From Candidatus Fervidifonticultor primus (lineage in GTDB: Bacteria > Sysuimicrobiota > Sysuimicrobiia > Sysuimicrobiales > Humicultoraceae): DNA of 64,000 nucleotides. This document shows positions 1 through 13,507 of this stretch, in pieces (the stretch's first letter is position 1; each line of letters starts with the position of its first letter). Location: NCBI GenBank assembly GCA_031459855.1, contig JAVKHP010000001.1:1825842-1889841 (forward strand). The letters run 5' to 3'. The position numbers were made by a program, and so were the translations under genes. The notes beneath the pieces were generated by a model. That model made no database searches. It worked only from the letters and a program-made list of their open reading frames with translations, and was not told the DNA's origin.

Positions 1-150
1 GAACAGGACGGCCCCGTCCTCCCCCACGAAGGCTTCGGGGAGGGGCGGCAGGTGCCGGTAGGTCTGCGCCGCACCCCAGGCGAGGACCACGGCGCTCGCG
101 ACCACCACCGTCAGGAGCAGAGCGTTGGCCTGTCGCAGGCTCAAATACAC
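1..150 (-). CDS. Partial hypothetical membrane protein, N-terminus only (GTG ~150; continues beyond left window edge)
   Basis: Minus-strand reading from ~150 downward gives VYLSLRQANALLLTVVVASAVVLAWGAAQTYRHLPPLPEAFVGEDGAVLF. It has a hydrophobic TM-like segment and no stop before the window edge, and is preceded by an in-frame TGA. It is under 60 aa so absent from the ORF track. Confidence 0.25.
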   Translation of the reverse strand, partial: MYLSLRQANALLLTVVVASAVVLAWGAAQTYRHLPPLPEAFVGEDGAVLF

Positions 151-504
151 ACGGGGGAAGATTCAGCATCTGGAGACGGGAGCCCTGCTGTAGCGGCTGT
201 TTGCGGGTCTACACGCGCAGGGGCGTGCTATAGGCCCTATAGGACGATGAAAGCTGCCATGGCCACCCAGACTGCGGCGTTGGAAGGTCCCGCCCTTGCG
301 GAAGTCCGTGAGGGCTTGGCCGCAGTGTCTTCTGTACCCAGGGTGGCCTTCACGATCTTGCTTCTCAGTGTCCGTGCGGGAAACCTCAAGCACAACGGGC
401 GCAGGCGCGCCAGCCTGCGAAGCTCCGGCCGCTTGCCCTCGATGGTGAGCACCGGGAACGCGGCCGAACATGGCACTCCCGTGGCTGCGGTTCTCTCGTG
501 GCGC

Positions 505-1752
505 CTACGGCGCGTCCTCCTCGCCGGCGCCCAGATAGTACACGATCGTGGCCGCGTACAGGCGGGCCGCTGCCACCAGCTCGTCGATGGCCACGTACTC
601 GTCGACCTGGTGGGGCAGCTCGCGCTTCCCCGGTCCGATGGTGACGATCGGGAGGCCGCCCCACGCGTGCAGGAATGTGCCGTCGGTGGCGCCCGGCACA
701 CCGCCGTAGCGCGCGGGCCGACCCAGCGCCACTTCGCACGCCCGCGCTACCGCCTGCACGATCGGCGCGTCGGCGGGCGTTGCGATCCACGGGCGGTCCT
801 CGACCAGCTCGAGGCGGATCGCCGCCCGCGGGTCGCCGGCGCGAGTGCCCTCGGCCAGCGCCTCCATGGCCGCCAGCACCGCCGCGTGGTCCTGCCCGGG
901 CACGGTGCGTACGTCGACCGTGACCTGCGCCTCGCCCGCCATGACGTTGAACTGCGGCTCGCCGTGGACCGGGGCGCGCATCGTGGTGGGCGTCACGTGG
1001 GGCAGGCCCAGGAACGGATGGCTGCCCACGCGCGCCTGTTCCCGGTGCTCGAGCTCGCCCAGGCCCAGCACGAACTGCGCCGCCCACGGGATGGGGTTGG
1101 CGCCCGCGTAGGGCATGGCTCCGTGGGCCATCTTGCCGACGAACGTGGCCAGCACACGCATGGCGCCTTTCTGGTACAGGCAGAGCTCGTTCTCCTCGGG
1201 CTCGCACACCACCGCCGCGTCGAACCCCTGGCAGCCTCCGGCGCGCACGAACGCCTTCACGCCCAGCATCAGGCCTTCCTCGTCGGCGAGCGCTGCCAGC
1301 CGCACGCGTCCCGGCAGGTCGGGCACGGTGCGGCGGACAGCGTCGAGTGCCACGATCGCCGCCGCCAGCCCGCCCTTCATGTCGCACGCCCCGCGGCCCC
1401 AGATGCGCCCGTCGGCCACGACGGCGTCGAAGGGCGGGTAGGTCCAGGCGGCTGGGTCGCCCTCGGTCACCACGTCGGTGTGGCCTTCGAGGATCAGGCC
1501 GCGGCCGGGCCGGCCGGTCTCCCAGTCGGCGACCACGTTGGGACGGCCGGGGGCTGCCAGGGAGGTCGACACCATGAGGCCCCGCGCGCGGAGGTCCTCG
1601 GCGAGGTACGCCGCGACCGCGGCCTCCGTGCCGGCGGGGTCCCCCGGGCGGATCACGCTGGGGATGCGCACGAGCGCGCACGTCAGCGCCACCACCTCGT
1701 CGGGATCCACGGCCGCGGCGGCGCGCGCCGCCAGCTCGCGCAGCGCGCTCAC
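505..1752 (-). CDS. M20 family metallopeptidase (ArgE/DapE/succinyl-diaminopimelate desuccinylase-like)
   Basis: C-terminal 416 aa of ORF 505..2667 read VSALRELAAR...GHTDVV...GRGACDMKGG...EEG...HG, matching M20 motifs. GTG start at 1752 overlaps the stop of the upstream permease (GTGA coupling). Confidence 0.85.
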   Translation of the reverse strand: MSALRELAARAAAAVDPDEVVALTCALVRIPSVIRPGDPAGTEAAVAAYLAEDLRARGLMVSTSLAAPGRPNVVADWETGRPGRGLILEGHTDVVTEGDPAAWTYPPFDAVVADGRIWGRGACDMKGGLAAAIVALDAVRRTVPDLPGRVRLAALADEEGLMLGVKAFVRAGGCQGFDAAVVCEPEENELCLYQKGAMRVLATFVGKMAHGAMPYAGANPIPWAAQFVLGLGELEHREQARVGSHPFLGLPHVTPTTMRAPVHGEPQFNVMAGEAQVTVDVRTVPGQDHAAVLAAMEALAEGTRAGDPRAAIRLELVEDRPWIATPADAPIVQAVARACEVALGRPARYGGVPGATDGTFLHAWGGLPIVTIGPGKRELPHQVDEYVAIDELVAAARLYAATIVYYLGAGEEDAP

Positions 1753-2636
1753 GGCCCGGCCCCGCCCCGCAGCCGGGGATCCAGCAGGTCGCGCAGGCCG
1801 TCGCCCAGCAGGTTGAAGCCCAGGACGGCTGCCGCGATGGTCACCCCGGGCCAGATCGCCATCCACCACGCGATGAAGAGCACGTCGCGCGCCTCCTGCA
1901 GCATGCCGCCCCACGACGGGGTGGGCGGCTGCGTGCCCAGGCCCAGGTAGCTGAGCGACGCCTCGGCCAGCACCGCGCCCGAGAACGCCACCGTGCCCTG
2001 GATCAGCAGCGGCCCGGCGATGTTGGGCAGCACGTGGCGGGCGACGATGCGCCCCTCCGGCGCGCCAAGCGCGCGCGCTGCCAGCACGAACTCCTGGTGG
2101 CGGACGGCCAGCGTCTGCGCGCGGCTCAAACGCGCGAAGATCGGCACCAGCACGATCCCGATGGCGACCATCGCCTGCACGTGGCCCGGGCCCAGCGCCG
2201 CGATCATCATCACGGCCAGCAGCAGGGCCGGGAACGCCAGCAGCCCGTCCATGACGCGCATGACCACGCTGTCGAGCGCTCCGCCGCGGAAGCCCGCCAC
2301 GAGCCCCAGCGGTACGCCCGTCCCCGCGCCGATCAGCACCGCGGTGGCGCCCACGGCCATCGCCACGCGGCCGCCGTGCAGCAGCCGGCTGGCGACGTCG
2401 CGGCCCAGGCGGTCGGTGCCCAGCAGGTGGCCGCCGCCAGGCGGTGCGAGCCGCCCCGCCGGATCCACGGCCGTGGGATCGTAGGGCGCCAGCCAGGGCG
2501 CTCCCAGCGCCAGCACCACCAGCGTCGTCACCAGCGCCCCGCCGGCCACCAGCGGCGGGTTCAGCCGGCGCCGGCGCGGGGGCGCGGGCCGGCCGCGTGC
2601 GAGCGGAAGGCGGAGCGCGGACGGCGGCGTGGTCAT
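1749..2636 (-). CDS. ABC transporter permease, DppC/OppC family (peptide/nickel)
   Basis: ORF 295 aa with multiple TM segments and a binding-protein-dependent transport signature (..ASLSYLGLGTQPPTPSWGGML..). Translationally coupled to the M20 peptidase. Confidence 0.85.
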   Translation of the reverse strand: MTTPPSALRLPLARGRPAPPRRRRLNPPLVAGGALVTTLVVLALGAPWLAPYDPTAVDPAGRLAPPGGGHLLGTDRLGRDVASRLLHGGRVAMAVGATAVLIGAGTGVPLGLVAGFRGGALDSVVMRVMDGLLAFPALLLAVMMIAALGPGHVQAMVAIGIVLVPIFARLSRAQTLAVRHQEFVLAARALGAPEGRIVARHVLPNIAGPLLIQGTVAFSGAVLAEASLSYLGLGTQPPTPSWGGMLQEARDVLFIAWWMAIWPGVTIAAAVLGFNLLGDGLRDLLDPRLRGGAGP

Positions 2637-2706
2637 GCGTAGCTATTGGTGCAGGTGCTGGCACCACGCACGAGCGGGCAGCGGGCGGACGGTCGCGTGG
2701 TCACGC

Positions 2707-3648
2707 TCAGTCGTAGGTGATGCGCGGGTCGGCCGCCGCGTAGAGGAGGTCGACGGCCAGGTTGAGCAGCGTGAACATCGTGGCGATGGTGAGCACGGCG
2801 CCCTGCACGATCAGCAGGTCCCGCGCGTAGATGCCCTGCAGCAGCAGCCGGCCCAGGCCCGGCAGGCCGAAGACCTGTTCGATGACGATCGTGCCGCCCA
2901 GCAGGAAGCCCAGCTGCAGGCCCGCCACGGTGAGCACCGGGATCAGCGCGTTGCGCAGCACGTGCCGCCGGAGCACGGTGACCTCGCCCAGGCCCTTGCT
3001 GCGGGCGGTGCGCACGTAGTCGCGCCGCAGTTCGTCGAGCACCGCCGCCCGCACCAGGCGCGTGAGCGCCGCCGCGCGCTCCAGGCCCAGGGCCAGCGCC
3101 GGCAGCGCCAGGTGCCGCAGCCACTGCGCCGGATCGCGCGCCAGCGCCGCGTAGCCCTGCAGCGGGAAGACGGGCCACGCCGCGGCGAAGCCCAACAGCA
3201 GGAGGATCCCCAACCAGAACGTCGGGATCGCCAGCCCCACCTGCGACCCCGCCAGTGCCGCCAGGTCGAGCGCCGACCATGCGCGTCGGGCCGCCGCGAT
3301 GCCCACCGGGAGCGCAACGCCCAGGGCCACGGCCATCGCCGCCATCGCGACCGACACCGTGACGGGCAGCCGCTGGGCGAGCAACCGTGTCACGGGCTCG
3401 CGGTACGCGACCGAGGTGCCCAGGTCGACGCGGGCCAGCCGGCCCAGCCACTCGACGTAGCGCACCACCAGCGGCCGGTCGAGCCCCAGCTCGCGCCGCA
3501 GCCGACTGAGCTCGTCGGGGCGGGCATCGACGCCCAACATGATGGTGGCCACGTCGCCCGGGACCACCTGGAGCGCCAGGAACGTGGCGGTGGCGACCAC
3601 GAGGACCGTGGGCACCACCGCCAGCAGCCGCCGGAGGACGAACGGCAT
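2707..3648 (-). CDS. ABC transporter permease, DppB/OppB family
   Basis: 313 aa; N-terminal MPFVLRRLLAVVPTVLVVATATFLALQ, internal RTARSKGL..VLRRHVLRNALIP (EAA-like loop), C-terminal ..DPRITYD typical of DppB. Confidence 0.85.
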   Translation of the reverse strand: MPFVLRRLLAVVPTVLVVATATFLALQVVPGDVATIMLGVDARPDELSRLRRELGLDRPLVVRYVEWLGRLARVDLGTSVAYREPVTRLLAQRLPVTVSVAMAAMAVALGVALPVGIAAARRAWSALDLAALAGSQVGLAIPTFWLGILLLLGFAAAWPVFPLQGYAALARDPAQWLRHLALPALALGLERAAALTRLVRAAVLDELRRDYVRTARSKGLGEVTVLRRHVLRNALIPVLTVAGLQLGFLLGGTIVIEQVFGLPGLGRLLLQGIYARDLLIVQGAVLTIATMFTLLNLAVDLLYAAADPRITYD

Positions 3649-3713
3649 GGTCCCCGCGGGCTACGCGGGGACGTGCACGGGCGCCGCGGGGGCGCGTCGG
3701 GCCGCCGGCTCCA

Positions 3714-5273
3714 TCACTTCGTCGTCTTCCGGAAGTCGAACGTGTCGATGGCGTAGAGCTGGCGGAAGTCGCGCACCGACCGCTGGGTGCCCATGTAGAG
3801 CACCGGCGTGCCCAACGGGATCAGCATCACGTCCTCGGTCATCTTCTTGAGCGCCTCGGCGTAGATCCGCTTGCGGTGGTCGGGGTTGGTGGTCAGGCGG
3901 CCGGCGAGGATCAGGTCGGCCACGCGGGGGTTGTCGTAGCGCACGTAGTTGGGCGGTACCCTGCTGGGGTCGCCGAACCCCGCCAGCCGGCCGTCGGGGT
4001 CGAGCTTGCCCGTGTGGCCGATGATGGTCAGGTCGTACTCGCCGCCGGCGTAGATGCGCGACAGCCAGAAGCCCCACTCCACGACGCGCGTGCGGGCCAC
4101 CACGCCCACGCGCCCCAGCATCGCCTGCACCAGCTGACCCGCCTCGATGTGCGCCTGGTAGGGCTGCGGGAGGGCCAGGTCCAGCGTCAGCCCGCTCCCG
4201 TACCCGGCCTCGGCCAGCAGCCGGCGCGCCTGGTCGGGGTTGTAGGGGTAGGGGTCGGGGATGTCCACGTAGTAGGGGCTGGTGACGTCCATGAAGACGT
4301 TGGAGACGAGCGACTCCCCGCCGTAGGCGGTCTTGAGGACCTGCTGGCGGTCGACGGCATGCCACAGGGCCCGGCGCACGCGCACGTCGCGCAGTGCAGG
4401 ACGGCTGTGGTTGGGCGCCAGCACGTTGATCAGGCTGGTGACCTGGCGCAGGACCCGCACGTTGGGGTTGGCGCGCACGCGCGGCAGGTCGAGGAACTGG
4501 ATGGCGTCGATGGCGTCGAACTCGCCTGCGAGCAGCCCCGCCACCTTCACCGCCGATTCGGGCACGAAGCGGATCAGCACCTCGCGCAGCCGCGGCTGGC
4601 CCTTGATCCAGTAGCCGTCGAAGCGCTGCAGCCGGATGAAGGCGTCGCGCTGCCACTCGGCCACGGTGAACGGCCCGGTCCCCACCGGCCGCGTGCCGAA
4701 GTCGTGGCGGCGGGCGATGAGGTCGGCCGGCAGGATGGCGCCCCACCCGTGGGCCAGCGCGGCGAGGAACGGCGCGAAGCGCTCGGCCAGGGTGATGCGC
4801 ACCGTGAGGGGATCGACCACCTCGATGGTGCGGATGCTGCCGAAGTCGCCGCGCTTGGGCGACCGCGTGGCCGGATCGAGGATGCGCTCGAACGTCGCCT
4901 TCACGTCGCCCGCATCCAGCGTCTTCCCGTGGTGGAACTTCACGCCCGCGCGCAGCCGGAACGTCCACACCAGGCCATCGGGCGAGACCGTCCACGACTC
5001 GGCCAGCGCCGGGACGAGCTTCCCCTCGTCGTCGGGCTCGACCAGCGTGTCGTAGAGGCTCTTGTTGACCTGGAACGCGAGGGTGGCCGCGGTCGCCTGG
5101 GGGTCCAGGGTGTCGGGCCCACCCGAGAGGGCGAAGACGAACCGGTCCCGCGGGGCCTGTGCGCCCGCCGGTGCGCCTCCGGTCAGGGCCGCGACCACCA
5201 CCACGGCCAGCGCGACCGCTGCCAGGGGACCGTGCGCACGTCGCACCTGCACGCTCCTCGTCGTCTGCTGCAT
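3714..5273 (-). CDS. ABC transporter substrate-binding protein, family 5 (peptide/nickel)
   Basis: Start chosen at internal MQQTTRS.. followed by a signal-peptide-like AAVALAVVVVAAL. Family-5 SBP-like sequence throughout. Its ATG overlaps the stop of the isomerase gene (ATGA). Confidence 0.85.
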   Translation of the reverse strand: MQQTTRSVQVRRAHGPLAAVALAVVVVAALTGGAPAGAQAPRDRFVFALSGGPDTLDPQATAATLAFQVNKSLYDTLVEPDDEGKLVPALAESWTVSPDGLVWTFRLRAGVKFHHGKTLDAGDVKATFERILDPATRSPKRGDFGSIRTIEVVDPLTVRITLAERFAPFLAALAHGWGAILPADLIARRHDFGTRPVGTGPFTVAEWQRDAFIRLQRFDGYWIKGQPRLREVLIRFVPESAVKVAGLLAGEFDAIDAIQFLDLPRVRANPNVRVLRQVTSLINVLAPNHSRPALRDVRVRRALWHAVDRQQVLKTAYGGESLVSNVFMDVTSPYYVDIPDPYPYNPDQARRLLAEAGYGSGLTLDLALPQPYQAHIEAGQLVQAMLGRVGVVARTRVVEWGFWLSRIYAGGEYDLTIIGHTGKLDPDGRLAGFGDPSRVPPNYVRYDNPRVADLILAGRLTTNPDHRKRIYAEALKKMTEDVMLIPLGTPVLYMGTQRSVRDFRQLYAIDTFDFRKTTK

Positions 5274-6091
5274 CACCTGCGTGCCCTCCCTTCGGTGGCG
5301 TCGCGTCCCTGCGCGACGCCCAGCCCCGCCCGGGCGAGCGACCGATGGGCGGCGTCGACCGTCGCGGTCTCCATGACGACGGTCTGCACCCACGGGGGCA
5401 GGTCGCGCCCCAGGTCGACGGCCTGGCTGATCTCGCCGTCGCCCCAGGCGAGGTGGTCGTCACGCCGTCCGCGGTTGTCGTTGACGTGCACGTGCACCAC
5501 GTCCCGGTCGGCGAGCAGAGCCCGCAGCACGTCGGGGCCGGCCAGGTAGGCGTGGGCCACGTCGAGGCACAGGCGCAGCGCCGGATGGGCCACCCGCTCG
5601 AACAGCTCGCGCAGCTCCTCGTAGCGCACCCCGTACGCGAACCCGATGCGGGGCGCACCATCGGCCAGCGCCACCGCCGGCATGTTCTCGAGATAGAGGT
5701 GGATGCCGGCGGCCGCCGCCGCGTCGGCGCACCGGCGCAGCGAGGCCACCGCGTGCGGCAGTCCGGTCTCGCGTGGGAAGACCTCCTGGTAGGGCGGGAG
5801 GCCCGGGTGCACGACCACGCCCCGCGCGCCCAGCCGCGCCGCCTCGTGGATCGTCGCGATCACCTGCGCCACCGACTCCTCACGAATGCCCGGGTTGGTG
5901 CTGGCGATGTTGATGCCGAGGATGGGAGCGTGCAGCGAGACCACGCGGCCATGGGGCCAGGGCACGGGCGGCGGCCACGCGTGGGGCGGCTCACAGAGGA
6001 TCTCGATGCCAACGTCCGCGGCCAGCAGGTCTGCGGCCGCCTCCTGGAGCGGCCGACGGACCGCCGCAAAACTGGAGATCGCCAGATCCAC
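5273..6091 (-). CDS. Sugar phosphate isomerase/epimerase (xylose isomerase-like TIM barrel)
   Basis: 272-aa ORF with ..GIHLYLENMP..HVHVNDN..D.HL.WG.GEI.. motifs typical of the AP endonuclease 2/xylose-isomerase-like TIM barrel family. Confidence 0.7.
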   Translation of the reverse strand: MDLAISSFAAVRRPLQEAAADLLAADVGIEILCEPPHAWPPPVPWPHGRVVSLHAPILGINIASTNPGIREESVAQVIATIHEAARLGARGVVVHPGLPPYQEVFPRETGLPHAVASLRRCADAAAAAGIHLYLENMPAVALADGAPRIGFAYGVRYEELRELFERVAHPALRLCLDVAHAYLAGPDVLRALLADRDVVHVHVNDNRGRRDDHLAWGDGEISQAVDLGRDLPPWVQTVVMETATVDAAHRSLARAGLGVAQGRDATEGRARR

Positions 6092-6410
6092 GTCTCACGC
6101 TCCTCACCCCGCCCGGTGCCTGGCGGGTCGGGTCGTCATGCAGCCCCACTGCAGCATGGTGCCGCCGCTGAGTGGCACCCTGCCGGGTGCGGGACGGTCC
6201 GCGTCATCATGGGGCGCAATTGCACACGCTCCGTAGACGCCGGTCCCCCGCCGACCCGGGTCCGGGAGTAATCATACCACCACGGCCCTGGTGGCCGAAC
6301 GCGCCTTCCTGCACCCTGTGCACACCCCGTCTGCACCGGCGCCCGGGCGCGATGCATCCGAGGCACAGGCCTCCGTGCGTCTGGTCGGGCGCCGTTCTCC
6401 GCGCGCCTGT

Positions 6411-7367
6411 TCAGGCGGGCTGCAGGTCCGGGTAGCCCGGGACGCCGCCGAGGCCACGGGCTGCGCGCACGGCACGGCGCGTCGCTTCAGCGACCGCCTG
6501 CGCGCAGGCCTCGCCCAGGCCGACGAGGTCGCCGGTGGCGTGCACGCCCGTCGCCAGCGCGAAGACCGTGTCGCCGTCGAACAACGTGTGCGAGGGCGCG
6601 ATCGCCCGCGACAGGCCCGCGTGTCCCTGGACCGCGAGGCGCCAGCACTGCGCCTTGGTGAGCGTCGCGGACGTGGCCACCACGGCCAGGGTGGTGTTGG
6701 TGGCGAACACCGCGTCGGGCGGCCGGCGCAGCAGCGCACGCGCCGCGTCCGCGAAGCCCCCCTCGGGCGCGCGGGCGCCAGCCAGGATCGTCCCGTCTTC
6801 GGCGCGCACATCGCCCAGGGCGTTGACCACCACCAGCGCGCCCACGACCGTGCCGTCGTGCAGGCGCACGCTCCAGGTGCCCACACCGCCCTTCATCGCG
6901 TAGGCGGGCCCCAGGATCTTGCCCACGGTGGCGCCGGTGCCGGCGCCCACGCTGCCCTCGGCCACCGGGCCGTCGGTGGCCTGCTGGCACGCGCGGTAGC
7001 CCATGGCCGCGTCGGGCCGGGCCCGCGGGTCGCCCAGGCCCAGGTCGAAGATCACGGCGCCGCACACGATGGGCACCCGCGCCACGCGGGTGTCCAGGCC
7101 GCAGTCGCGCTCCTCCAGGTAGCGCATCACGCCGTCGGCCGCGGCCAGGCCGAACGCGCTGCCGCCCGCCAGCAGCACGCCGTGGATCCGCTGGACCAGG
7201 TTGCCCGGGTGCAGGACCGACAGGCCCAGCGTGCCCGGCGCGGCCCCGCGCGCCTCGCCTGCCGCCGTGGCGCCGCCTTCGCAGAGCACGACCGTGCAGC
7301 CCGTCAGGCCCACGAGGTCGGTCTCGTGGCCCACGCGGATGCCGGGCACGTCGGTGATGGACGTCAT
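6411..7367 (-). CDS. P1/S58 family peptidase (DmpA/L-aminopeptidase D-Ala-esterase/amidase-like)
   Basis: Start at internal MTSITDVPGIRVGHETD..; GLTGCTVVL.., ..ATNTTLAVVATSATLTKAQ.. resemble the DmpA/ArgJ-like self-processing family. Confidence 0.75.
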   Translation of the reverse strand: MTSITDVPGIRVGHETDLVGLTGCTVVLCEGGATAAGEARGAAPGTLGLSVLHPGNLVQRIHGVLLAGGSAFGLAAADGVMRYLEERDCGLDTRVARVPIVCGAVIFDLGLGDPRARPDAAMGYRACQQATDGPVAEGSVGAGTGATVGKILGPAYAMKGGVGTWSVRLHDGTVVGALVVVNALGDVRAEDGTILAGARAPEGGFADAARALLRRPPDAVFATNTTLAVVATSATLTKAQCWRLAVQGHAGLSRAIAPSHTLFDGDTVFALATGVHATGDLVGLGEACAQAVAEATRRAVRAARGLGGVPGYPDLQPA

Positions 7368-7509
7368 GCGGCGACGGCGTTGGACGTCATGGGGCACTGC
7401 AGGCCACGACGGTCGGGCACACGCCGCGACTCTTCGGGAGGGCGGGCGCGCACCCCTTCCCCAGACCATCCTCCTGTAGCGCCCGCGCCGGATGCGACGC
7501 TGGGTGATC

Positions 7510-8883
7510 TCAGGGTCTTGCGCCCGACGGCGTGAAGGTCAACGACGCGATCTGGCCGATCCGTCCCGGCACGCCGAGGCGCAGACCGTTGACCGTGAGG
7601 TCGGCCGCCCCCGCGTTTCCCGTCCTGATGTGGATCACGCGACGGGCAGTCCACTGCCGGATCTCGCCGGCGCGCACGACGCCCTCGAAGACCCGAATGC
7701 CGTCGACTGTGACCCGCAGCCACGACCTGCCGGTGGCACTCAAGATCACGCTGACGCCCATGGTCGCGTGGCCGCGGGCGGGCAGGGCGCTCCGAGGTGT
7801 CTCCGCAACCTCGCCGGGTGCGCCGTTCGGGCGAGCCCCCACGTGCGCGGGGCCTGTCGGAGACCGGGCCTGCGGGGGCAGTTCGGGGGAACCCGAGCGG
7901 CCCATAACGATCGACGGCGGCGCGGTAGCACCAGCGGCTGCGGGATCCGCGGCGTGCGTCGCCGGACCGCCTACCGCGATCGTGTCGCGGTCGGCGCCGG
8001 CGGGCGCGACCCCACGATCCAGGGCACCGGCCCCGTCTGTCGGTGGAGAGACAGCTCGATGCTGCGCGACGGCCAACGACCGGAGAGAACGCCCCGGCAG
8101 GTACGACGCGCCAGCGGCGGCGAGGAGCACAACTGCGCCCACCACCGCCCATCCCCTCGGGCGTCTGCGCTGCGGCCTGGACGGGCCGGGCAGAGCTCGT
8201 GCGTCCGGCAGGTGCCGCACCGCATCCGGGACGAGCCCCACACGCGCTGGTCCTGCGCGCAACATGCCTGCACCCGCCGCCACGTCGGCGGCGGGCGGCG
8301 GCTTCCGGAGGGTCGGCCCGGTGCGCGCGCCGCCTCGGAGCACATGCCGGACAACGCACACGCTGCGTGCGCGTGCCCGCAGATGGCGGGGCAACCGGTA
8401 GAAGGCCAGGCACCGCGCCAGGTCGGTCTCCAGATCGCGGGCGGCTCGCTCGCCTTCTGCCACCCAGCGAGCGCGCCAGGCGCGGAAGCGGGCTGCGGCG
8501 GCCTCGCGGTCGCCCGCCAGGAAGATCCTGCGGGCCTCCTCCGTGCACCCCGCGTGCCTTCGACCGTCCACGCTGCGCCGCATGACGGCCAGCCGGTGAG
8601 GGATGCTGTACTGGATAGCGACACCCGGGAACGTCGCTTCCACGGCGCGCACCACCGCTGGCGTGCCGTCACAACACACCAGCACAGGGGTAGCCGTGCC
8701 GGCCCGGAGTTCCTGGAGCAGGCTCGTCCAGGCAGGGGTGTCCACGCGTGCGACGCGACGCAGTCCCGCCACGGTGAGCGTGCCATCGGGAGCCACCGCG
8801 AGTGCGCACAACGTGTGGGAGGCCGTGTCCTCGGCGCTGGGCGGCACGCTGCCCAGCAGGAGCACCATCGGGGTCTGCGGCAT
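7510..8883 (-). CDS. Chimeric protein: mutator/IS256-like transposase core (aa ~1-190) fused to TM segment + Pro/Ala-rich linker + C-terminal DUF4115 (RodZ C-terminal-like) domain
   Basis: N-terminus ..VLVCCDGTPAVVRAVEATFPGVAIQYSIPHRLAVMRR..ARCLAFYRLPRHLRARARSVCVVRH parallels the IS256 ..DGLKGF..AVFP.A.IQRCWVHK.RN...FFKFP.EIRK.IYTTNAIES region but with degenerate catalytic residues. Then TM WAVVGAVVLLAAAGASYL. C-terminus ..SWLRVTVDGIRVFEGVVRAGEIRQWTARRVIHIRTGNAGAADLTVNGLRLG.. is DUF4115-like. A strong SD (GGAAGGAGGTG) lies 8 nt upstream of the ATG. Confidence 0.5.
   Translation of the reverse strand: MPQTPMVLLLGSVPPSAEDTASHTLCALAVAPDGTLTVAGLRRVARVDTPAWTSLLQELRAGTATPVLVCCDGTPAVVRAVEATFPGVAIQYSIPHRLAVMRRSVDGRRHAGCTEEARRIFLAGDREAAAARFRAWRARWVAEGERAARDLETDLARCLAFYRLPRHLRARARSVCVVRHVLRGGARTGPTLRKPPPAADVAAGAGMLRAGPARVGLVPDAVRHLPDARALPGPSRPQRRRPRGWAVVGAVVLLAAAGASYLPGRSLRSLAVAQHRAVSPPTDGAGALDRGVAPAGADRDTIAVGGPATHAADPAAAGATAPPSIVMGRSGSPELPPQARSPTGPAHVGARPNGAPGEVAETPRSALPARGHATMGVSVILSATGRSWLRVTVDGIRVFEGVVRAGEIRQWTARRVIHIRTGNAGAADLTVNGLRLGVPGRIGQIASLTFTPSGARP
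8314..8883 (-). mobile_element. Transposase-derived segment (IS256/mutator family remnant lacking the N-terminal ~150 aa; likely domesticated or decayed)
   Basis: Only the central/C-terminal transposase regions are present. The QRCWVHK-like motif is degenerate (QYSIPHR). No intact inverted repeats identified. Confidence 0.4.
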
Positions 8884-8954
8884 ACGCGCAGCACCTCCTT
8901 CCGGCGGCGCGTCCGGGCCTCGCCGACCATCGGTACCCGCCGCTGGAGGCTTCG

Positions 8955-8988
8955 GGGAGTTTCTACCCTTCTTTGGGGAGTTCTAGAC
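8955..8988. repeat. Direct repeat GGGGAGTT(T)CTAsMC x2 (20-bp period) in an AT-richer leader
   Basis: ggggagtttctac / ggggagttctagac seen directly, upstream of the chimeric ORF. Confidence 0.5.
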
Positions 8989-9030
8989 GAGGATTTTCCC
9001 TAAGAGGCGGTCGCGGCTGTCCGCGAACTT

Positions 9031-9140
9031 CCCTAATAGTCCCCCAATCCACCGCTCGTCTCCCTGCTGCGCACCTGCACGTCGCGTTGGCTGCTGGCCA
9101 CCCGCTAATCGTCCCAATCCGCCGCTCCTCTCCCCGCGGG
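9031..9140. repeat. Two ~38-bp imperfect direct repeats 70 bp apart (ccctaatagtcccccaatccaccgctcgtctccctgc / cccgctaatcgtcccaatccgccgctcctctccccgc)
   Basis: Seen directly; about 80% identical. Located in the lower-GC intergenic region between the YeiH-like gene and the chimeric ORF. Confidence 0.55.
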
Positions 9141-9169
9141 CAGATCCACCGAGCGTCCACGGTCCGACC

Positions 9170-10204
9170 CTACAGCCACGCCCGGATCAGGGCCAGGCTG
9201 ACCACCGCGATCGCAACCGACGCCAGGAGGCCGATGCCGAGCGGGCGCAGTCCCACGCGGCGCATGCCCTGCAGGTCGGCCGACAGCCCCACTGCGGCCA
9301 TCACCATGACCACCAGGACGCGGCCCGCCAGCGAGGCGGTCCGGGCGACCGGCGGCGCCACCAGCCCGGCGGTGTTCGCCAGGGCAGCCGCAGCAAACCA
9401 CAGGACGAACCAGGGGAAGATTCGCGCCAGGCGGACGCGAGGCCGTGCCACGCCCCCGGTGCGGCTGCGCCGCACGCTGGACGCGATGCCGAACGCGAGC
9501 GCCAGTGGTACCAGCAGCAGCGTTCGGGTGAGCTTCACCACGGTAGCGACCTGGCCGGCGGGCTCGCTGAACTGGAACGCAGCCGCCAGCACCGAGGAGG
9601 TGTCGTGGATGGCCGCGCCGGCCCAGGCGCCGAAGGCGGCGTCGGACAGGGCGAGCACATGGCCCAGCGCCGGGTAGACGACCACCGCCAGCATGTTGAA
9701 GAGGAAGATCGTTGTCACGGCGAAGGCGATCTCCTCTTGACGCGCTTCGATGATGGGCCCGATGGTCAGGATGGCTGTCGCGCCACAGATAGCGGTGCCC
9801 GCGCCGATCAGGCCGACGAGTCCCCCGGGTGCACGCAGCCATCGCCCGAACAGCGCGGTCAGCCCCAGCGCCAGCACCACGGTCGTACCCAGCACCGCCA
9901 GGGTACCGGTGCCGATGCGCAGCACCTGGGCGAAGCTGAGCGTGGTCCCGAAGAGCACGATGGCCACCCGCAGTAGCCTCTTGAGGACGAAGTCCAGGCC
10001 GGGGCGCCACGCCGGCCGCGGACCGCTGACGGTGCGCACCGTCAGTCCCACGGCGAGTGCCAGCACCGGCGCGCCGACGAGCGGGACCCAGCCGCCGCCG
10101 GCCCAGGCGACTGTCGCCACCGCCGCCGTGACCAGCAGGCCGGATGCGAGGGGAGCCACCGCGGTGGGCAGCGTGCGGGTGACGGTAGGTCGCAGGTCGT
10201 GCAT
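9170..10204 (-). CDS. YeiH/UPF0324 family membrane protein (putative sulfate-exporter-like)
   Basis: Start at internal MHDLRPTV..; about 10 TM segments; ..FVLKRLLRVAIVLFG..AGAAIHDTSSVLAA.. typical of the YeiH family. The upstream 220 in-frame residues are low-complexity, so they are excluded. Confidence 0.7.
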   Translation of the reverse strand: MHDLRPTVTRTLPTAVAPLASGLLVTAAVATVAWAGGGWVPLVGAPVLALAVGLTVRTVSGPRPAWRPGLDFVLKRLLRVAIVLFGTTLSFAQVLRIGTGTLAVLGTTVVLALGLTALFGRWLRAPGGLVGLIGAGTAICGATAILTIGPIIEARQEEIAFAVTTIFLFNMLAVVVYPALGHVLALSDAAFGAWAGAAIHDTSSVLAAAFQFSEPAGQVATVVKLTRTLLLVPLALAFGIASSVRRSRTGGVARPRVRLARIFPWFVLWFAAAALANTAGLVAPPVARTASLAGRVLVVMVMAAVGLSADLQGMRRVGLRPLGIGLLASVAIAVVSLALIRAWL

Positions 10205-10574
10205 CGATACCTCCCCGGCGGACGCGGAATGTCGGGCGCGTGCACGAGGCCAGCAACGGCTGCCGCCGATTCGCACGAGCCCACGCTCTGGCATGACTAC
10301 CGCGGCCAGGGGCACCGTCCCTGCGCGCTGGCCGGCCGGCATGCAGTATCGGCCTACGTTGACACAGGACGCGCCGGCTGCCCATCGCAGCCCGGCCCAC
10401 GGCGTCAGGCAGGCAGCACCGGTGCACCGGCGAGCCACGCACGCGGGTGGAGGCCGGCTCGCGCGGCATGGATACCCGGGTAGACGCACCGCCCGCAGGA
10501 GATCGCCCCGTGCACAGGAAACAAGAGGTCGTGTCGCGGTACCACCGGCACCGGGGACGCGCGCCGGGGAGGTC

Positions 10575-12164
10575 ATGGACCGCACCGAGCTGATCCGCCG
10601 CCTGGAAGCCGTCGTCGGACGGCCGTACGTGCTCCACCGCACCGACGACGTGTCGGTGTACGAGCAGGATGCCCTGATGGTGGCGCGGGGCCGCCCGGAC
10701 GCCGTGGTGCTGCCCGATAGCGCCGAGCAGGTGGCGGCGGTGGTGCGGATCGCCCGCGAGGCCGGCCTGCCGGTCGTCGCGCGGGGCGCCGGCACCGGGT
10801 TGGCCGGCGGCGCCATTCCCGTGCGGGGCGGCATCGTGGTGGCCCTCACCCGCATGACCCGCATCCTCGAGATCGACGTCGCCAGCCGGCTCGCGGTCGT
10901 CGAGCCAGGCGTCGTGAATGCCGATCTGACCGCGGCGCTGGAGCCCCACGGCCTGTTCTACGCACCCGACCCGGGCAGTCAGGTGGCGTCGACCATCGGC
11001 GGCAACGTCGCCACCAACGCCGGCGGGCCGCACTGCCTGGCCTATGGGGTCACCGGGAACAACGTGCTGGGCCTGGAGGTGGTGCTGTCCGACGGGACGC
11101 TCGCCTGGGTGGGCGGCCGCGCGCACGACGCACCGGGCTACGACCTCGTCGGCCTGCTGGTGGGCTCCGAGGGGACCCTTGGGATCGTGACCAAGATCGT
11201 CGTGCGCCTGGTCCAGAAGCGCGAGGCGGTGCGCACGCTGCTCGCGATCTACGACGCCATGGACGCCGCGTGTGAGGCCACCTCCGCGGTCATCGCTGCC
11301 GGCATCGTGCCCGAAGCGCTGGAGGTCCTCGACGGGATCTCGATGCGGGCGGTGAACCGCACGCTGGGCGCCGGGTTCCCCGAGGACGCCGAGGCGGCGT
11401 TGTTGATCGAGGTCGAAGGGGTGGCCGAGGCCGTGCCGGTGCTGATCGAGCGGATCGAGGCGATCTGCCGTCAGCACGGCGCCCGTCGCATCCAGACCGC
11501 CGCCACGGCCGAGGAGCGCGCCGGCCTCTGGAAGGGCCGCAAGCATGCCTACGGGGCGTTGGGCCGGCTGGGCCGGCGCGCCATGATGCTCGACGTGTGC
11601 GCGCCGCGCTCCCGCCTGGCCGAGGTGATGCGCCAGGTCCTGGCTGCCGGCCGGAAGTGGGAGGTGGGTGTCGCCAACTTCTTCCACGCTGGCGACGGGA
11701 ACATGCATCCCACCCCGTTCTTCGACATCGCTGAAGACTCGCCCGAGTACGCGCGCGTGGTGGGGTTGACCGAGGACATCATGCGCGCCTGCGTGGACGC
11801 TGGCGGGACCATCACCGGCGAGCACGGCATCGGCCTGGAGAAGCGCGAGTACCTGGGCTGGATGTTCGGCGAGGCCGACATCGCCGCGATGAAGCGCATC
11901 AAGGCCGTCTTCGATCCGGACGGGCTGTGCAACCCCGAGAAGATCTTCCCGATCGGCCGGTCCCCGCACGCGATCCCCGCGCCGCGCGAGGTGGACGACG
12001 GCGCTGCGGCGCACACGGTCATCCGTGAGGCAGGGGGTGAGGCAGGGAGGGGCGGCGTTGCCGTGGCCGCCCCGGAGACCCTCGCCGCGGCCGTCCCGGA
12101 GAGCCCCGGCGCGACTGCCCCCGAGGTTGCGGGGCGGCCGGGTGGCGTTGCGCCGCCGGCATGA
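10575..12164 (+). CDS. glcD: Glycolate oxidase FAD-binding subunit GlcD (FAD-linked oxidase) with Pro/Ala-rich C-terminal extension
   Basis: MDRTELIRRLEAVVGRPYVLHRTDD..PDAVVLPDSAEQVAAVVRIAREAGLPVVARGAGTGL.GG. is a canonical FAD_binding_4 domain. ATGA overlap with the next ORF. Confidence 0.85.
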   Translation: MDRTELIRRLEAVVGRPYVLHRTDDVSVYEQDALMVARGRPDAVVLPDSAEQVAAVVRIAREAGLPVVARGAGTGLAGGAIPVRGGIVVALTRMTRILEIDVASRLAVVEPGVVNADLTAALEPHGLFYAPDPGSQVASTIGGNVATNAGGPHCLAYGVTGNNVLGLEVVLSDGTLAWVGGRAHDAPGYDLVGLLVGSEGTLGIVTKIVVRLVQKREAVRTLLAIYDAMDAACEATSAVIAAGIVPEALEVLDGISMRAVNRTLGAGFPEDAEAALLIEVEGVAEAVPVLIERIEAICRQHGARRIQTAATAEERAGLWKGRKHAYGALGRLGRRAMMLDVCAPRSRLAEVMRQVLAAGRKWEVGVANFFHAGDGNMHPTPFFDIAEDSPEYARVVGLTEDIMRACVDAGGTITGEHGIGLEKREYLGWMFGEADIAAMKRIKAVFDPDGLCNPEKIFPIGRSPHAIPAPREVDDGAAAHTVIREAGGEAGRGGVAVAAPETLAAAVPESPGATAPEVAGRPGGVAPPA

Positions 12165-13507
12165 GCGGCCCGTCCCACGCCCCCGCAGTGCCCGCGCGGC
12201 TCGGTCCGGCCGACCTCGCGCCGCCGGGTGGCGCCGCGTCGGGCGCTGCTGTCGCGCCGCGAGCTGCCGGGACTTCGGCGATGCCATGGATTCCCGAGGT
12301 CGAGACCTGCATCCACTGCGGCCTGTGTCTGAACCAGTGCCCCACCTACCGGGTCACCCGTCTGGAAGCCGAGTCCCCTCGCGGACGCATCTGGCTCGTG
12401 AAGGAGGCGGCGGCGGGACGGCTGGAGCCGGCGGCCATCGCCGACCACCTGTACCTGTGCCTGATGTGTCGGGCGTGCGAGACCGCCTGCCCGTCGGGCG
12501 TCCAGTACGGGCGTATCGCGGAGGCCGCGCGGGCCGTGCTGGGCCCACCGGGCCCGCCCGTGCAGCGGGCGGTGGTCCGGTTCGTGCTGCGCCAGCTCAT
12601 GCCCTACCCCGGGCGGCTGCGGCGCGCGGCCGCGGCCCTGCGCGCGGCACAGCGCACCGGCCTGCTGGCCTTCGCGCAGCGCGTGTTGCCCACGGGCCTG
12701 CGACAGCGTGCCGCGCTGGCCCCCGAGGTGCCGCCGCGGGGCTTCAGTCCCGAGGCCGAGGTGTTGCCCGCGCTGGGTGAGCGCCGGGCGCGTGTGGGGT
12801 TCCTGGCGGGCTGCGCCATGAGCCTGTTCTTCCCCGACGTGAACGACGCCACGGTGCGCGTGCTGCGGCGCAACGGGTGCGAGGTGGTGGTCCCCGCAGG
12901 CCAGGTGTGCTGCGGTGCGCTGAACAGCCACTACGGGGAAGCGCAGACCGCCCGGGCGATGGCCCGGCGGAACGTCGATGCCTTTCCCGACGACGTCGAC
13001 GCCATCGTCACCAACGCCGCGGGGTGCGGGGCGGCCATGAAGGCCTACGGGCACCTGTTGGCCGACGATGCCGTCTACGCGGCGCGAGCCGAGCGCTTTG
13101 CCGCCAGGGTGCGCGACGCCACCGAATGGCTGGTGCAACTCGGGCTGCGCACGCAGCCGCAGGCGGTCCCGGTCGTCGCCACCTACCAGGACCCCTGCCA
13201 TCTGGCCCATGGCCAGCGCGTGCGGACCGAGCCGCGCGCGCTGCTGGCGGCAGCCGGCGTCCGCCTGGTGGAGATGCCCGCCGCCGACCGCTGCTGTGGC
13301 AGCGCCGGCATCTACAACCTGCTGCAGCCCGCCATGGCCGAGACGTTGTTGCGCGACAAGATGGAGGCGGTGCGGGCCACCGGCGCGCAGGTGGTGGTGG
13401 CGCCCAACCCCGGATGCATGCTGCAGCTGCAGTACGGCGCCCGCCGGTTTGGCGTCCCTGTGCGCGTCGCGCACCTGATGGACCTCCTCGACCAGGCGGG
13501 GGCGTGA
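12161..13507 (+). CDS. glcF: Glycolate oxidase iron-sulfur subunit GlcF (2x 4Fe-4S + CCG domains)
   Basis: CIHCGLCLNQCP and CLMCRACETACP ferredoxin motifs plus two Cys-rich CCG domains (..DPCHLAHGQ.., ..NPGCMLQL..). Alternative start at MPWIPEV (~12281). Confidence 0.8.
   Translation: MSGPSHAPAVPARLGPADLAPPGGAASGAAVAPRAAGTSAMPWIPEVETCIHCGLCLNQCPTYRVTRLEAESPRGRIWLVKEAAAGRLEPAAIADHLYLCLMCRACETACPSGVQYGRIAEAARAVLGPPGPPVQRAVVRFVLRQLMPYPGRLRRAAAALRAAQRTGLLAFAQRVLPTGLRQRAALAPEVPPRGFSPEAEVLPALGERRARVGFLAGCAMSLFFPDVNDATVRVLRRNGCEVVVPAGQVCCGALNSHYGEAQTARAMARRNVDAFPDDVDAIVTNAAGCGAAMKAYGHLLADDAVYAARAERFAARVRDATEWLVQLGLRTQPQAVPVVATYQDPCHLAHGQRVRTEPRALLAAAGVRLVEMPAADRCCGSAGIYNLLQPAMAETLLRDKMEAVRATGAQVVVAPNPGCMLQLQYGARRFGVPVRVAHLMDLLDQAGA

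Follow-up and report, generated by a model that had tools for sequence, protein, structure and literature searches.

A probably exapted IS256 transposase core with a predicted membrane segment and a RodZ_C tail, encoded by a conserved single-copy gene of hot-spring Sysuimicrobiota

On the minus strand of the window, by which we mean the whole 64 kb stretch of DNA that was analysed, a complete coding sequence specifies a protein of 457 amino acids (aa) that joins the core of an IS256/Mutator transposase, through a predicted transmembrane (TM) segment, to a C-terminal RodZ_C (DUF4115) domain. The GC fractions at its three codon positions (0.76, 0.64 and 0.81) fit a coding pattern at such GC, and an independent Logan assembly (SRR27730047) encodes a protein identical to the window open reading frame (ORF). 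The gene and its upstream region contain the following features.

7510..8883, minus strand: complete coding sequence, 457 aa, stop codon at 7510-7512
8323..8883, minus strand: aa 1-187, RNase H-like core and four-helix insertion domain of an IS256/Mutator transposase
8851..8853, minus strand: codon 11 (GGC, Gly), position of the first DDE Asp, in strand beta-1 of the model
8668..8670, minus strand: codon 72, second DDE Asp, kept, in the motif CCDG
8596..8607, minus strand: codons 93-96 (S-I-P-H), former C/DxxH motif of the insertion domain, Cys replaced by Ser and His retained
8347..8349, minus strand: codon 179 (Arg), position of the DDE Glu
8155..8322, minus strand: aa 188-243, Pro/Arg/Ala-rich linker, predicted cytoplasmic, of varying length and low conservation among orthologues
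8098..8154, minus strand: aa 244-262, sole hydrophobic segment GWAVVGAVVLLAAAGASYL, Ala/Val/Gly-rich, predicted TM from hydropathy only
7759..8097, minus strand: aa 263-375, Ala/Pro/Gly-rich linker, predicted extracytoplasmic, variable among orthologues
7513..7758, minus strand: aa 376-457, RodZ_C (DUF4115) beta domain with GNAG signature
8892-8902, minus strand: Shine-Dalgarno sequence GGAAGGAGGTG, 8 nt from the ATG at 8883
8946..8994, minus strand: conserved upstream element ATCCTCGTCTAGAACTCC-N-GGGTAGAAACTCCCCGAAGCCTC, 63-111 nt before the ATG

Profile searches recovered both domains that the first-pass annotation had recognized, each far past chance. Pfam Transposase_mut (PF00872) matched aa 22-174 (window 8362-8820; profile positions 181-334 of 379) with an E value of 2.2e-15 and 56.9 bits against a cutoff of 21; on the NCBIfam IS256 equivalog model (NF033543) the ORF scored 61 bits against a cutoff of 150 and failed the full-length family threshold. 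Pfam RodZ_C (PF13464) matched aa 381-449 (window 7537-7743; profile positions 2-72 of 72) with an E value of 5e-16 and 58.9 bits against a cutoff of 23.9, and in tblastn searches this domain matched the RodZ_C repeats of three RodZ-like proteins that bear a helix-turn-helix (HTH) domain (P0030, P0031 and P0036). AlphaFold2 (AF2) modelled most of the transposase domain with a pLDDT of 84-96, and the best PDB match of the fold model of aa 1-187 was the ISCth4 transposase (6xg8, E value 9.5e-9), also the best PDB match by sequence. The modelled elements run b1-b2-b3-a1-b4-a2-b5, then four helices, then the helix that bears the catalytic Glu in true transposases.

The ORF begins at the first strand of the catalytic domain, and all family members begin within about 30 aa of that point. 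Absent are the dimerization, NDB and HTH domains (about residues 1-165 of ISCth4 TnpA), and the catalytic domain is, judged against ISCth4 TnpA, also short of its final ~50 aa. The first-pass annotation had the N-terminus missing together with the first Asp of the DDE triad; the loss of the N-terminal domains holds, but because the ORF contains the start of the catalytic domain, the first DDE position lies inside it, at residue 11.

Positions of the DDE and CxxH residues were mapped by alignment with true IS256 transposases, with residue roles from PMC7780238. We compared them across the proteins that share the two-domain architecture (the RodZ_C clade) and across a wider set of tail-anchored relatives (the crown family, described below). 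At the Glu position, Arg, Lys or Asn occurs in 7/7 RodZ_C-clade proteins and Glu in 78/78 crown sequences, and the neighbouring Asn176 is lost in the clade. The window protein has Gly as residue 11, where the other six clade members and 76/76 crown sequences have Asp. The counterpart of the QRCxxHKLRN motif reads IQYSIPHRLAV, as degenerate as had been claimed for the QRCWVHK-type motif, while Q91, H96, D72 and the basic Glu-helix are kept. Since the Glu is replaced and Asn176 lost, and the first Asp is Gly in the window protein, a two-metal DDE site cannot form; from these replacements, which are clade-wide for the Glu, and from the change of CxxH to SxxH, we conclude that the window core is catalytically dead. 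Cores of the RodZ_C clade are basic (net charge +7 to +11, mean about +9; mean pI about 10.6), and the 73% GC of the genome accounts for part of their high Arg content.

The first-pass annotation described the middle of the protein as a low-complexity stretch, a single TM helix and a Pro/Ala linker. The composition and the one hydrophobic segment agree with that description; the helix is less clear, with a Kyte-Doolittle (KD) value of 1.83 for aa 244-262 and of 1.3-1.8 for this weakly hydrophobic TM segment generally, and with no helix placed by AF2. Because only four aligned sequences span the linkers, the TM segment and RodZ_C, the AF2 model had low confidence in those parts. The segment is preceded by six Arg/Lys in 15 residues and followed by three in 15, and this Arg-rich N-side flank predicts an N-in, C-out topology by hydropathy and the positive-inside rule only. 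The product would thus be a single-pass (bitopic) membrane protein, composed of a dead IS256 core, a linker, a TM segment, a second linker and RodZ_C. The extracytoplasmic linker (aa 263-375) contains a 14-aa tandem repeat whose copy number differs between two orthologues, and RodZ_C is the best-conserved part of the whole protein.

In one member of the clade (P0002), the juxtamembrane segment DLLDPFWQRHRR resembles, as a remnant, the juxtamembrane motif of the crown family, and this likeness suggests, from that one sequence, that the TM segment was supplied by the transposase-derived family, as its tail anchor, and not by RodZ. A search for the donor of the domain gave no clear candidate; one of the nearest RodZ_C proteins was from Syntrophomonas. 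The MreB-binding cytoplasmic HTH is the essential part of RodZ, and DUF4115 is dispensable in the RodZ proteins studied and without an assigned function (PMC9804626). No HTH family of Pfam or NCBIfam matched the window protein, whose N-terminus is the transposase core. The description of the C-terminal module as cytoskeleton-associated is not supported, given the absent HTH and the dispensable DUF4115.

Seven intact sequences, at 37-79% identity, have the same two-domain architecture, and L024 is one further locus. Orthologues at 54-79% identity share the gene neighbourhood in other Sysuimicrobiota (CSP1-3) assemblies, in the order YeiH-family gene, window gene, Peptidase_S58, AP_endonuc_2, SBP_bac_5 and permeases; they have the same start, ribosome-binding site and stop as the window gene, and none contains a frameshift or internal stop. 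Ratios of dN to dS were 0.24-0.40 in the transposase core and 0.13-0.30 in RodZ_C, with dS up to 0.8, a divergence at which the orthologues are not assembly copies of one genome. Synonymous change exceeded non-synonymous change in every domain (Fisher p 1e-12 to 4e-4), and both domains are under purifying selection. The ratio in the core is relaxed relative to typical housekeeping domains. The clade is rare, with six clusters in 5.8 billion proteins, seen in metagenomic assemblies only, and a single-pattern search of related loci returned one more orthologue together with five true IS256 copies. MAGs that bear the fusion include JAVKIP (Ca. Fervidifonticultor secundus) and JAVKII (GCA_031459555.1). 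A chimeric assembly was considered and ruled out, because the same architecture turns up in independent assemblies from NCBI, ENA, JGI and Logan.

Upstream of the gene, the strong ribosome-binding site reported by the first-pass annotation was found as described, and its GAGGTG core is unchanged across five orthologous loci. The element at 8946-8994 comprises two direct half-sites, TAGAA(A)C..CC, at a distance of about 21 nt and is nearly invariant in 5/5 orthologous loci despite diverged coding sequence; within the window its 14-nt core has a single occurrence, and none of the 16 other loci compared contains it. We consider this element a candidate promoter or operator, and its conservation, together with that of the ribosome-binding site, is an indirect sign that the gene is expressed. 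The upstream region had no match in Rfam, and scans for sigma-70 promoters and intrinsic terminators found nothing, as expected at 73% GC.

The RodZ_C clade is probably a rare offshoot of the lineage-specific crown family in Sysuimicrobiota/CSP1-3. The wider, hitherto undescribed family comprises at least 85 clusters, each on 1-5 contigs, of N-truncated IS256 cores tail-anchored in the membrane; crown proteins are annotated merely as ‘transposase’ or ‘hypothetical protein’, in MAGs of Sysuimicrobiota/CSP1-3 that carry the NCBI label Armatimonadota. The crown keeps the DDE triad, with the first Asp and the Glu in every sequence counted above and the second Asp in 77/78, and the His of CxxH is almost perfectly conserved. 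In each of the 77 crown proteins checked, a TM segment stands 0-5 residues from the C-terminus, and 55 of these 77 have a juxtamembrane motif D..F..W[LI]. Most of the family occupies one housekeeping slot (between rnhB-yraN and comM-dprA-topA), and three crown lineages share the longer arrangement with ffh-rpsP-rimM-trmD-rplS-lepB-rnhB-yraN on one side and comM-dprA-topA on the other; the genes of this slot (topA, dprA, comM, yraN, rnhB and their neighbours) are absent from the window. In a neighbour-joining tree, built without support values, the crown and RodZ_C family was monophyletic with respect to true transposases, and the RodZ_C clade was itself monophyletic and sister to the tail-anchored proteins. 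The crown family is, judged from sequence, lineage-specific and inherited vertically.

Crown and fusion proteins align over the same core at 30-47% identity and have in common the N-terminal truncation point and the SxxH change, and in both the linker is disordered and the juxtamembrane and TM segments are homologous; the window protein differs in its 195 extra extracytoplasmic residues, which include RodZ_C, in the loss of the Glu and in its locus. The addition of a linker and a RodZ_C domain behind a crown-type tail anchor is the most likely origin of the clade. Look-ups with P0229 and P0001 found crown and fusion forms in one run series (SRR277300xx), from Tengchong hot-spring samples. None of the crown proteins with accessions (10 clusters) fell in the estimated accession ranges of two fusion MAGs, and tetranucleotide correlations, 0.83-0.87 for crown locus L014 with the window or L002 and 0.73 for L013 with L024 from one metagenome, are not decisive for a shared genome.

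Intact orthologues, synteny, purifying selection and nesting within a larger, vertically inherited family support the first of two origins offered by the first-pass annotation, in which a transposase domain was domesticated and joined to a RodZ-type module. We conclude from the sequence comparisons that the window gene, a conserved single-copy gene of hot-spring members of the uncultivated phylum Sysuimicrobiota, is most likely a domesticated (exapted) IS256 core with a RodZ_C tail. The gene is probably a functional host gene, neither a mobile element nor the wreck of one.

The other origin, a rodZ-like gene that took up an IS256 element and then decayed, with the frame surviving by chance or as a gene-calling artefact at 73% GC, would account for the degenerate catalytic residues and for an NCBIfam score far under its cutoff, in a high-GC window that yields many long spurious ORFs on all strands. 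It is extremely improbable, because the orthologues at 54-79% identity are intact with the same signals and neighbours, every domain shows the excess of synonymous change, and codon-position GC follows the coding pattern. Around the gene (6900-9700), only weak, chance-level inverted repeats were found, with no IS ends and no target duplication, and the 64 kb window holds no second or intact IS256 copy, no rodZ fragment and no remnant of a rodZ HTH. We also regard as improbable that the protein inhibits transposition in the manner of Tn5 Inh; it would then be an N-truncated transposase which, at the membrane, sequesters or poisons active transposases of the IS256 family as a host defence against IS expansion. 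Exactly the DNA-binding N-terminus is gone while the core is kept, the family is membrane-tethered, and true multi-copy IS256 elements occur in MAGs labelled Armatimonadetes (L005-L009); however, the dimerization region (ISCth4 residues 1-56, PMC7780238) is missing, so that heterodimerization is not to be expected, the window core is only about 30% identical to the nearest true transposases, and IS256 is absent from the window. Inhibition would leave unexplained both the extracytoplasmic RodZ_C and the perfect DDE triad of the crown. The window protein and two crown members had no match among the PADLOC anti-phage models at E<=0.01.

That the window core is still an enzyme, using a variant active site to cut or join nucleic acids at the membrane (in DNA uptake or repair, for instance), is very unlikely. 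The argument for it comes from relatives: the D, D and E residues and the CxxH His are almost perfectly conserved in the crown, whose genes adjoin yraN, rnhB, comM, dprA and topA, and one RodZ_C-clade member adjoins genes for a LigD-type ligase, a Prim-Pol and a 5'-3' exonuclease. Against it are the losses of the Glu in all seven clade proteins, of Asn176 and, in the window protein, of the first Asp. A similar rnhB...dprA-topA gene order is found in Firmicutes, and if that order is ancestral, the adjacency says little about function. It is likewise improbable that the protein is the RodZ of its cell, with the dead core binding MreB in place of the HTH. The order of cytoplasmic domain, basic juxtamembrane stretch, TM segment, Pro-rich linker and RodZ_C is that of RodZ (PMC9804626), but the HTH is absent, no mreB, mreC, mreD or rodA gene lies near the gene in any locus examined, and the clade is sporadic, where a shape determinant would be expected throughout its lineage; moreover, the sister proteins have no RodZ_C at all.

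The exapted host gene that we favour differs from each known system to which it can be likened. With IS256-family/Mutator transposases (ISCth4 TnpA, 6xg8; IS256 Tnp) it shares a homologous RNase H-like core and four-helix insertion domain, yet it lacks their dimerization, NDB and HTH domains and last ~50 aa, and has Arg for the Glu, Gly for the first Asp and SxxH for CxxH; unlike the elements that encode them, it is single-copy, syntenic and predicted to be membrane-tethered, with neither inverted repeats nor target duplication. The C-terminal half is like RodZ in its basic juxtamembrane stretch, one TM segment predicted N-in, Pro/Ala-rich linker and full-length RodZ_C, whereas the transposase core replaces the MreB-binding HTH and linkage to mre and rod genes is absent.

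Domesticated transposases are well documented among eukaryotes, and among the genes derived from Mutator-like elements (MULEs), FHY3/FAR1 and MUSTANG keep their DNA-binding domains and are nuclear, FHY3/FAR1 being transcription factors. As in those cases, a Mutator-superfamily transposase has been exapted into an immobile, conserved host gene, but here the DNA-binding domains were dropped, only the catalytic core was kept and the protein is tethered, by prediction, to the membrane. The Tn5/IS50 inhibitor Inh, which lacks the end-binding domain, comes from the gene of the transposon itself and is almost identical in sequence to the transposase it targets. The window protein is likewise an N-terminally truncated transposase with no end-binding domain; in contrast to Inh it is chromosomal, ancient, about 30% identical to true transposases and devoid of the dimerization domain.

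We propose that the layout of the window protein is that of a RodZ-like trans-envelope linker in which the MreB-binding HTH has been swapped for an exapted transposase core. The strongly basic, dead core would be a module that binds nucleic acid or protein without catalysis, tethered, according to the predicted topology, at the inner face of the membrane, and RodZ_C may couple its position or availability to the cell envelope. A wider reading, which we offer tentatively and hold to be well short of probable, is that an early IS256 capture in Sysuimicrobiota gave rise to a membrane-tethered host enzyme, and that the window gene is a dead paralogue which acquired RodZ_C and regulates or localizes that enzyme. 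As the crown keeps its full DDE site under selection, the wider reading proposes that it is a tail-anchored nuclease or strand-transferase, which would act on DNA or RNA at the membrane; the window protein would then be a trans-envelope sensor or anchor that regulates or localizes either the crown activity or its nucleic-acid substrate.

To our knowledge, domesticated transposases in bacteria are rare outside the CRISPR and TnpB stories. In the searchable literature we found neither an exapted bacterial IS256/Mutator transposase nor a transposase core serving as the cytoplasmic domain of a membrane protein. The family has a built-in comparison, between a widespread sister family with an intact DDE site and a rare derivative that lacks the site and has gained an extracytoplasmic RodZ_C, so that loss of catalysis and gain of a domain can be studied side by side. 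It also offers a handle on the role of RodZ_C/DUF4115, which occurs here without the RodZ HTH. The ‘transposase’ labels of about 85 clusters are corrected, and these genes are probably immobile, which bears on IS counts in MAGs of the phylum. If the wider reading is true, the family would be the first case described of an IS256/Mutator transposase domesticated in bacteria, and its members a new class of RNase H-fold proteins bound to the membrane.

The longest open reading frame covering 7510-8883 on the minus strand encodes 457 amino acids and begins at an ATG at 8883, 8 nt after GGAAGGAGGTG, in agreement with the strong ribosome-binding site claimed in the first-pass annotation. That annotation had also described a transposase core and a RodZ/DUF4115 tail in one frame, separated by low-complexity stretches and a single hydrophobic segment, and had named a Pfam search among its checks. 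Both matches were above threshold, and the intervening features were recovered:

aa 22-174, minus strand: Transposase_mut (PF00872), profile positions 181-334 of 379, E 2.2e-15
aa 188-243, minus strand: Pro/Arg/Ala-rich stretch
aa 244-262, minus strand: hydrophobic segment, the only one, hydropathy (KD) 1.83
aa 263-375, minus strand: Ala/Pro/Gly-rich stretch
aa 381-449, minus strand: RodZ_C (PF13464), whole profile, E 5e-16

Six Arg/Lys residues lie in the 15 positions before the hydrophobic segment and three in the 15 after it. The protein scored 61 bits against the NCBIfam IS256 equivalog cutoff of 150, and is thus related to IS256 transposases without being one of them. At 73% GC, the window contains many long, overlapping spurious reading frames (for example 3661-5661, 7364-8548, 7492-9003 and 9105-12287, within 1-12300 on all strands), so length alone is no evidence of a gene there.

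The protein was aligned with four full-length IS256-family transposases and with ISCth4 TnpA (6xg8), the only solved member of that family, in which residues 1-56 form a dimerisation domain, 108-165 the HTH domain, D175, D241 and E348 the catalytic triad and C262xxH265 a further motif (PMC7780238). In the alignment with transposases, its N-terminus coincides with beta strand 1 of the catalytic domain; its transposase part stops about eight residues past the Glu position. Measured against ISCth4, the three N-terminal domains are entirely missing, as are the final ~50 residues; core and insertion domain are retained whole. The N-terminal loss had been anticipated correctly, but not the loss of the first DDE Asp with it: because the frame begins at the first beta strand, that position lies inside it, as residue 11, and is Gly; its codon, GGC, differs from GAC by a single transition. 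D72, the second Asp, is kept, the Glu position is Arg179, and S93xxH96 replaces CxxH, which bears out the degenerate catalytic motif noted earlier. Judged from these residues, a DDE active site cannot form. An AlphaFold2 model built with 83 family sequences as input reached pLDDT 84-96 over most of aa 1-187, with the order b1-b2-b3-a1-b4-a2-b5, four helices, Glu-helix; a PDB fold search with the model ranked ISCth4 chains best (E about 1e-8) and retroviral integrase cores next.

Proteins with both domains (the RodZ_C clade) are rare. A single-sequence search of 5.8 billion proteins returned four, each carrying the two Pfam domains. One more came from a profile search of that set and another from scanning 1.8 billion representatives exhaustively with HMMER, giving six clusters at 90% identity (seven sequences); a JGI metagenome scan yielded an additional soil-subclade member (locus L024). 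They share an N-terminus of MPQT, MPRT or MLQEVPGN; core and RodZ_C are highly conserved and the linkers variable. The best genome match was the MAG Candidatus Fervidifonticultor secundus (70% identity), a member of a genus placed in Candidatus Sysuimicrobiota, the phylum previously called CSP1-3 (PMC11604079). Other MAGs carry the NCBI label ‘Armatimonadota bacterium’, and Logan run SRR27730047 contains an identical protein. Some linkers contain tandem amino-acid repeats: a 14-residue unit, HQEDRALASAPASA, occurs twice in the orthologue P0004 (L001) and three times in P0222 (L004), and the predicted cytoplasmic linker of P0002 (L002) has a duplicated DVASAAGTRHVG unit. The variable copy number would fit linkers acting as length-tolerant spacers.

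Could the gene be a pseudogene, in particular an IS insertion into a rodZ-like gene that later decayed, as the first-pass annotation had offered as one possibility? The orthologous loci hold an intact fusion, and the hot-spring subclade conserves the gene order YeiH-family gene, fusion gene, Peptidase_S58, xylose-isomerase-like TIM barrel, SBP_bac_5, two permeases and M20 peptidase. Nei-Gojobori estimates for four orthologues (dS up to 0.8) were as follows, with synonymous exceeding non-synonymous change (Fisher p 1e-12 to 4e-4):

Transposase core: dN/dS 0.24-0.40
Linkers: dN/dS 0.37-0.53
RodZ_C: dN/dS 0.13-0.30

No IS-type inverted repeats or target duplication were found flanking the gene, and tblastn over the 64-kb window detected only this copy, with neither a true IS256 nor a further RodZ_C. 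On this evidence we rejected the decayed insertion, and a pseudogene is very unlikely; from its sequence record, the fusion is a conserved gene and not a wreck.

The truncation extends to a larger family. In the HMMER scan, ~25 representatives matched the core at E 1e-97 to 1e-29 (genuine transposases, about 1e-20), each with the match starting about 20-30 residues from its N-terminus; the truncation is common to all of them. A profile search expanded the family to at least 85 clusters at 90% identity, each seen on one to five contigs and named ‘transposase [Armatimonadota bacterium]’ or ‘hypothetical protein’. Its crown, which lacks RodZ_C, has a uniform layout of short N-terminal tail, truncated core, Ala/Pro/Glu-rich linker, juxtamembrane motif of the type DLSxDxDFMWWLxxHRR (D..F..W[LI] in 55/77) and TM helix, followed by 0-5 residues in 77/77 proteins; by this layout, the crown proteins are tail-anchored. 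The DDE triad is intact in the crown, and Glu is also gone from several basal lineages. Residues in the 78-sequence crown alignment and the RodZ_C clade compare as follows:

First Asp (residue 11): crown 76/76; RodZ_C clade Asp in 6/7, Gly in the window
Second Asp (residue 72): crown 77/78; RodZ_C clade, kept in all
Glu (residue 179): crown 78/78; RodZ_C clade Arg, Lys or Asn in all seven (Asn in P0234)
His of CxxH (residue 96): crown 78/78; RodZ_C clade, kept
Cys of CxxH (residue 93): crown Ser in 72/78; RodZ_C clade, Ser

Three separate lineages hold the crown gene in one housekeeping slot, between an ffh-rpsP-KH-ylqD-rimM-trmD-rplS-lepB-rnhB-yraN block and a comM-dprA-topA block, with yraN (UPF0102) on one side and MOSC/HAD/comM-dprA-topA on the other; a fourth lineage has it elsewhere. 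The crown loci are:

L010, 7001-8326: crown gene
L014, 7001-8134: crown gene
L016-L018, 7001-8116: crown gene

This pattern indicates vertical inheritance rather than mobility, and by gene order these ‘transposases’ behave as a vertically inherited host gene. Firmicutes have a similar rnhB...dprA-topA order, so we draw no function from the position. In L014, comM (Mg-chelatase-like) falls in two adjacent tblastn segments (5625-5017 and 5015-4080) within 4080-5625, where the locus table has no gene, suggesting a frameshift or assembly error in that MAG. Five loci of another MAG (L005-L009; CAVQDB01, ‘uncultured Armatimonadetes bacterium’) match the core at 29-30% identity, four of them with match statistics that coincide (30% identity over the same matched residues). 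The five resemble a true IS256-family element present in several copies, unlike the single-copy domesticated family.

When the core was analysed by neighbour joining (root on true transposases, no support values), the family was monophyletic and the RodZ_C proteins formed one clade, with the tail-anchored P0023 and P0028 as sisters. In P0002, the residues just before the TM segment (DLLDPFWQRHRR) are a recognisable remnant of the juxtamembrane motif of the crown. The most parsimonious history would append linker and RodZ_C behind a pre-existing tail anchor; a transposase landing in a rodZ gene would be less parsimonious. No RodZ_C donor was identified among the nearest RodZ_C proteins.

Upstream, the ribosome-binding-site core and a 49-nt element (ATCYTCGTCTAGAMCTCC...GGGYAGAAACYYCCCGAARCCT), 63-111 nt before the ATG, are nearly invariant across five orthologous loci; the element has changed less than the coding sequence:

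Window 8946-8994, minus strand: 49-nt element
L001 9880-9930, L002 9888-9938, L003 2622-2672, L004 7880-7930: element in orthologous loci

It contains two direct TAGAA(A)C..CC half-sites ~21 nt apart and is a putative operator or promoter. Rfam gave no match, and the element occurs only once in the window. Between the YeiH-family and fusion genes lie two 25-nt direct repeats (CCCAATCCRCCGCTCSTCTCCCYGC; 9043-9067 and 9113-9137; 88% identical, 70 nt apart), in a region that, when aligned, is not conserved in orthologous loci. Across the Peptidase_S58 start region runs a tandem 23-nt duplication (7349-7394, 83% identical), so that the minus strand offers two candidate ATGACGTCC starts, both in frame, at a spacing of 23 nt.

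Sequence comparison demonstrates the order of the domains, that catalytic residues have been lost, that both domains are under purifying selection, and that the gene is inherited as a single copy in synteny. Hydropathy and the positive-inside rule predict an N-in, C-out topology, with the core cytoplasmic and RodZ_C outside, as in RodZ. The RodZ_C-clade core (net +7 to +11, pI about 10.6) is similar in charge to true transposase cores (+11 to +16) and retains the Arg-rich Glu-helix; both features are compatible with a core that still binds nucleic acid or a partner but no longer catalyses. Most likely, the protein is a non-catalytic binding module at the inner membrane face, which RodZ_C would couple to the envelope. 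Alternatives, each of low probability, are a transposition inhibitor resembling Tn5 Inh, an enzyme with residual activity, a genuine RodZ substitute binding MreB and, least probably, a pseudogene. On the favoured reading the protein would have a RodZ-like layout with a different cytoplasmic head. It cannot be filed as RodZ: the essential HTH is missing, and in the RodZ proteins that have been studied the part that remains, RodZ_C, can be dispensed with and has no known function (PMC9804626).

Genes for an Opp/Dpp-type peptide ABC transporter adjoin the fusion gene in both subclades; in the hot-spring subclade they lie downstream in the fusion gene's own orientation, accompanied by S58 and M20 peptidase genes, and in the soil subclade they are transcribed divergently from it. 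At L021 (11352-17066, forest soil) only, the P0234 gene is followed by a DNA-repair/NHEJ cluster of ATP-dependent DNA ligase (LigD-type), 5'-3' exonuclease, EVE-domain protein, HhH-GPD glycosylase and LigD-type Prim-Pol. Such neighbours are weak contextual hints.

In databases these proteins go under ‘transposase’ or ‘DUF4115 domain-containing protein’, and full-text literature searches returned no description of bacterial IS256/Mutator domestication or of a transposase core joined to RodZ_C. The host of the fusion gene is uncultivated. Transposase exaptation is a known kind of event; what is new here is the architecture, in which the transposase contributes only its catalytic core, tethered to a membrane and either joined to RodZ_C or not, together with the lineage of the host.
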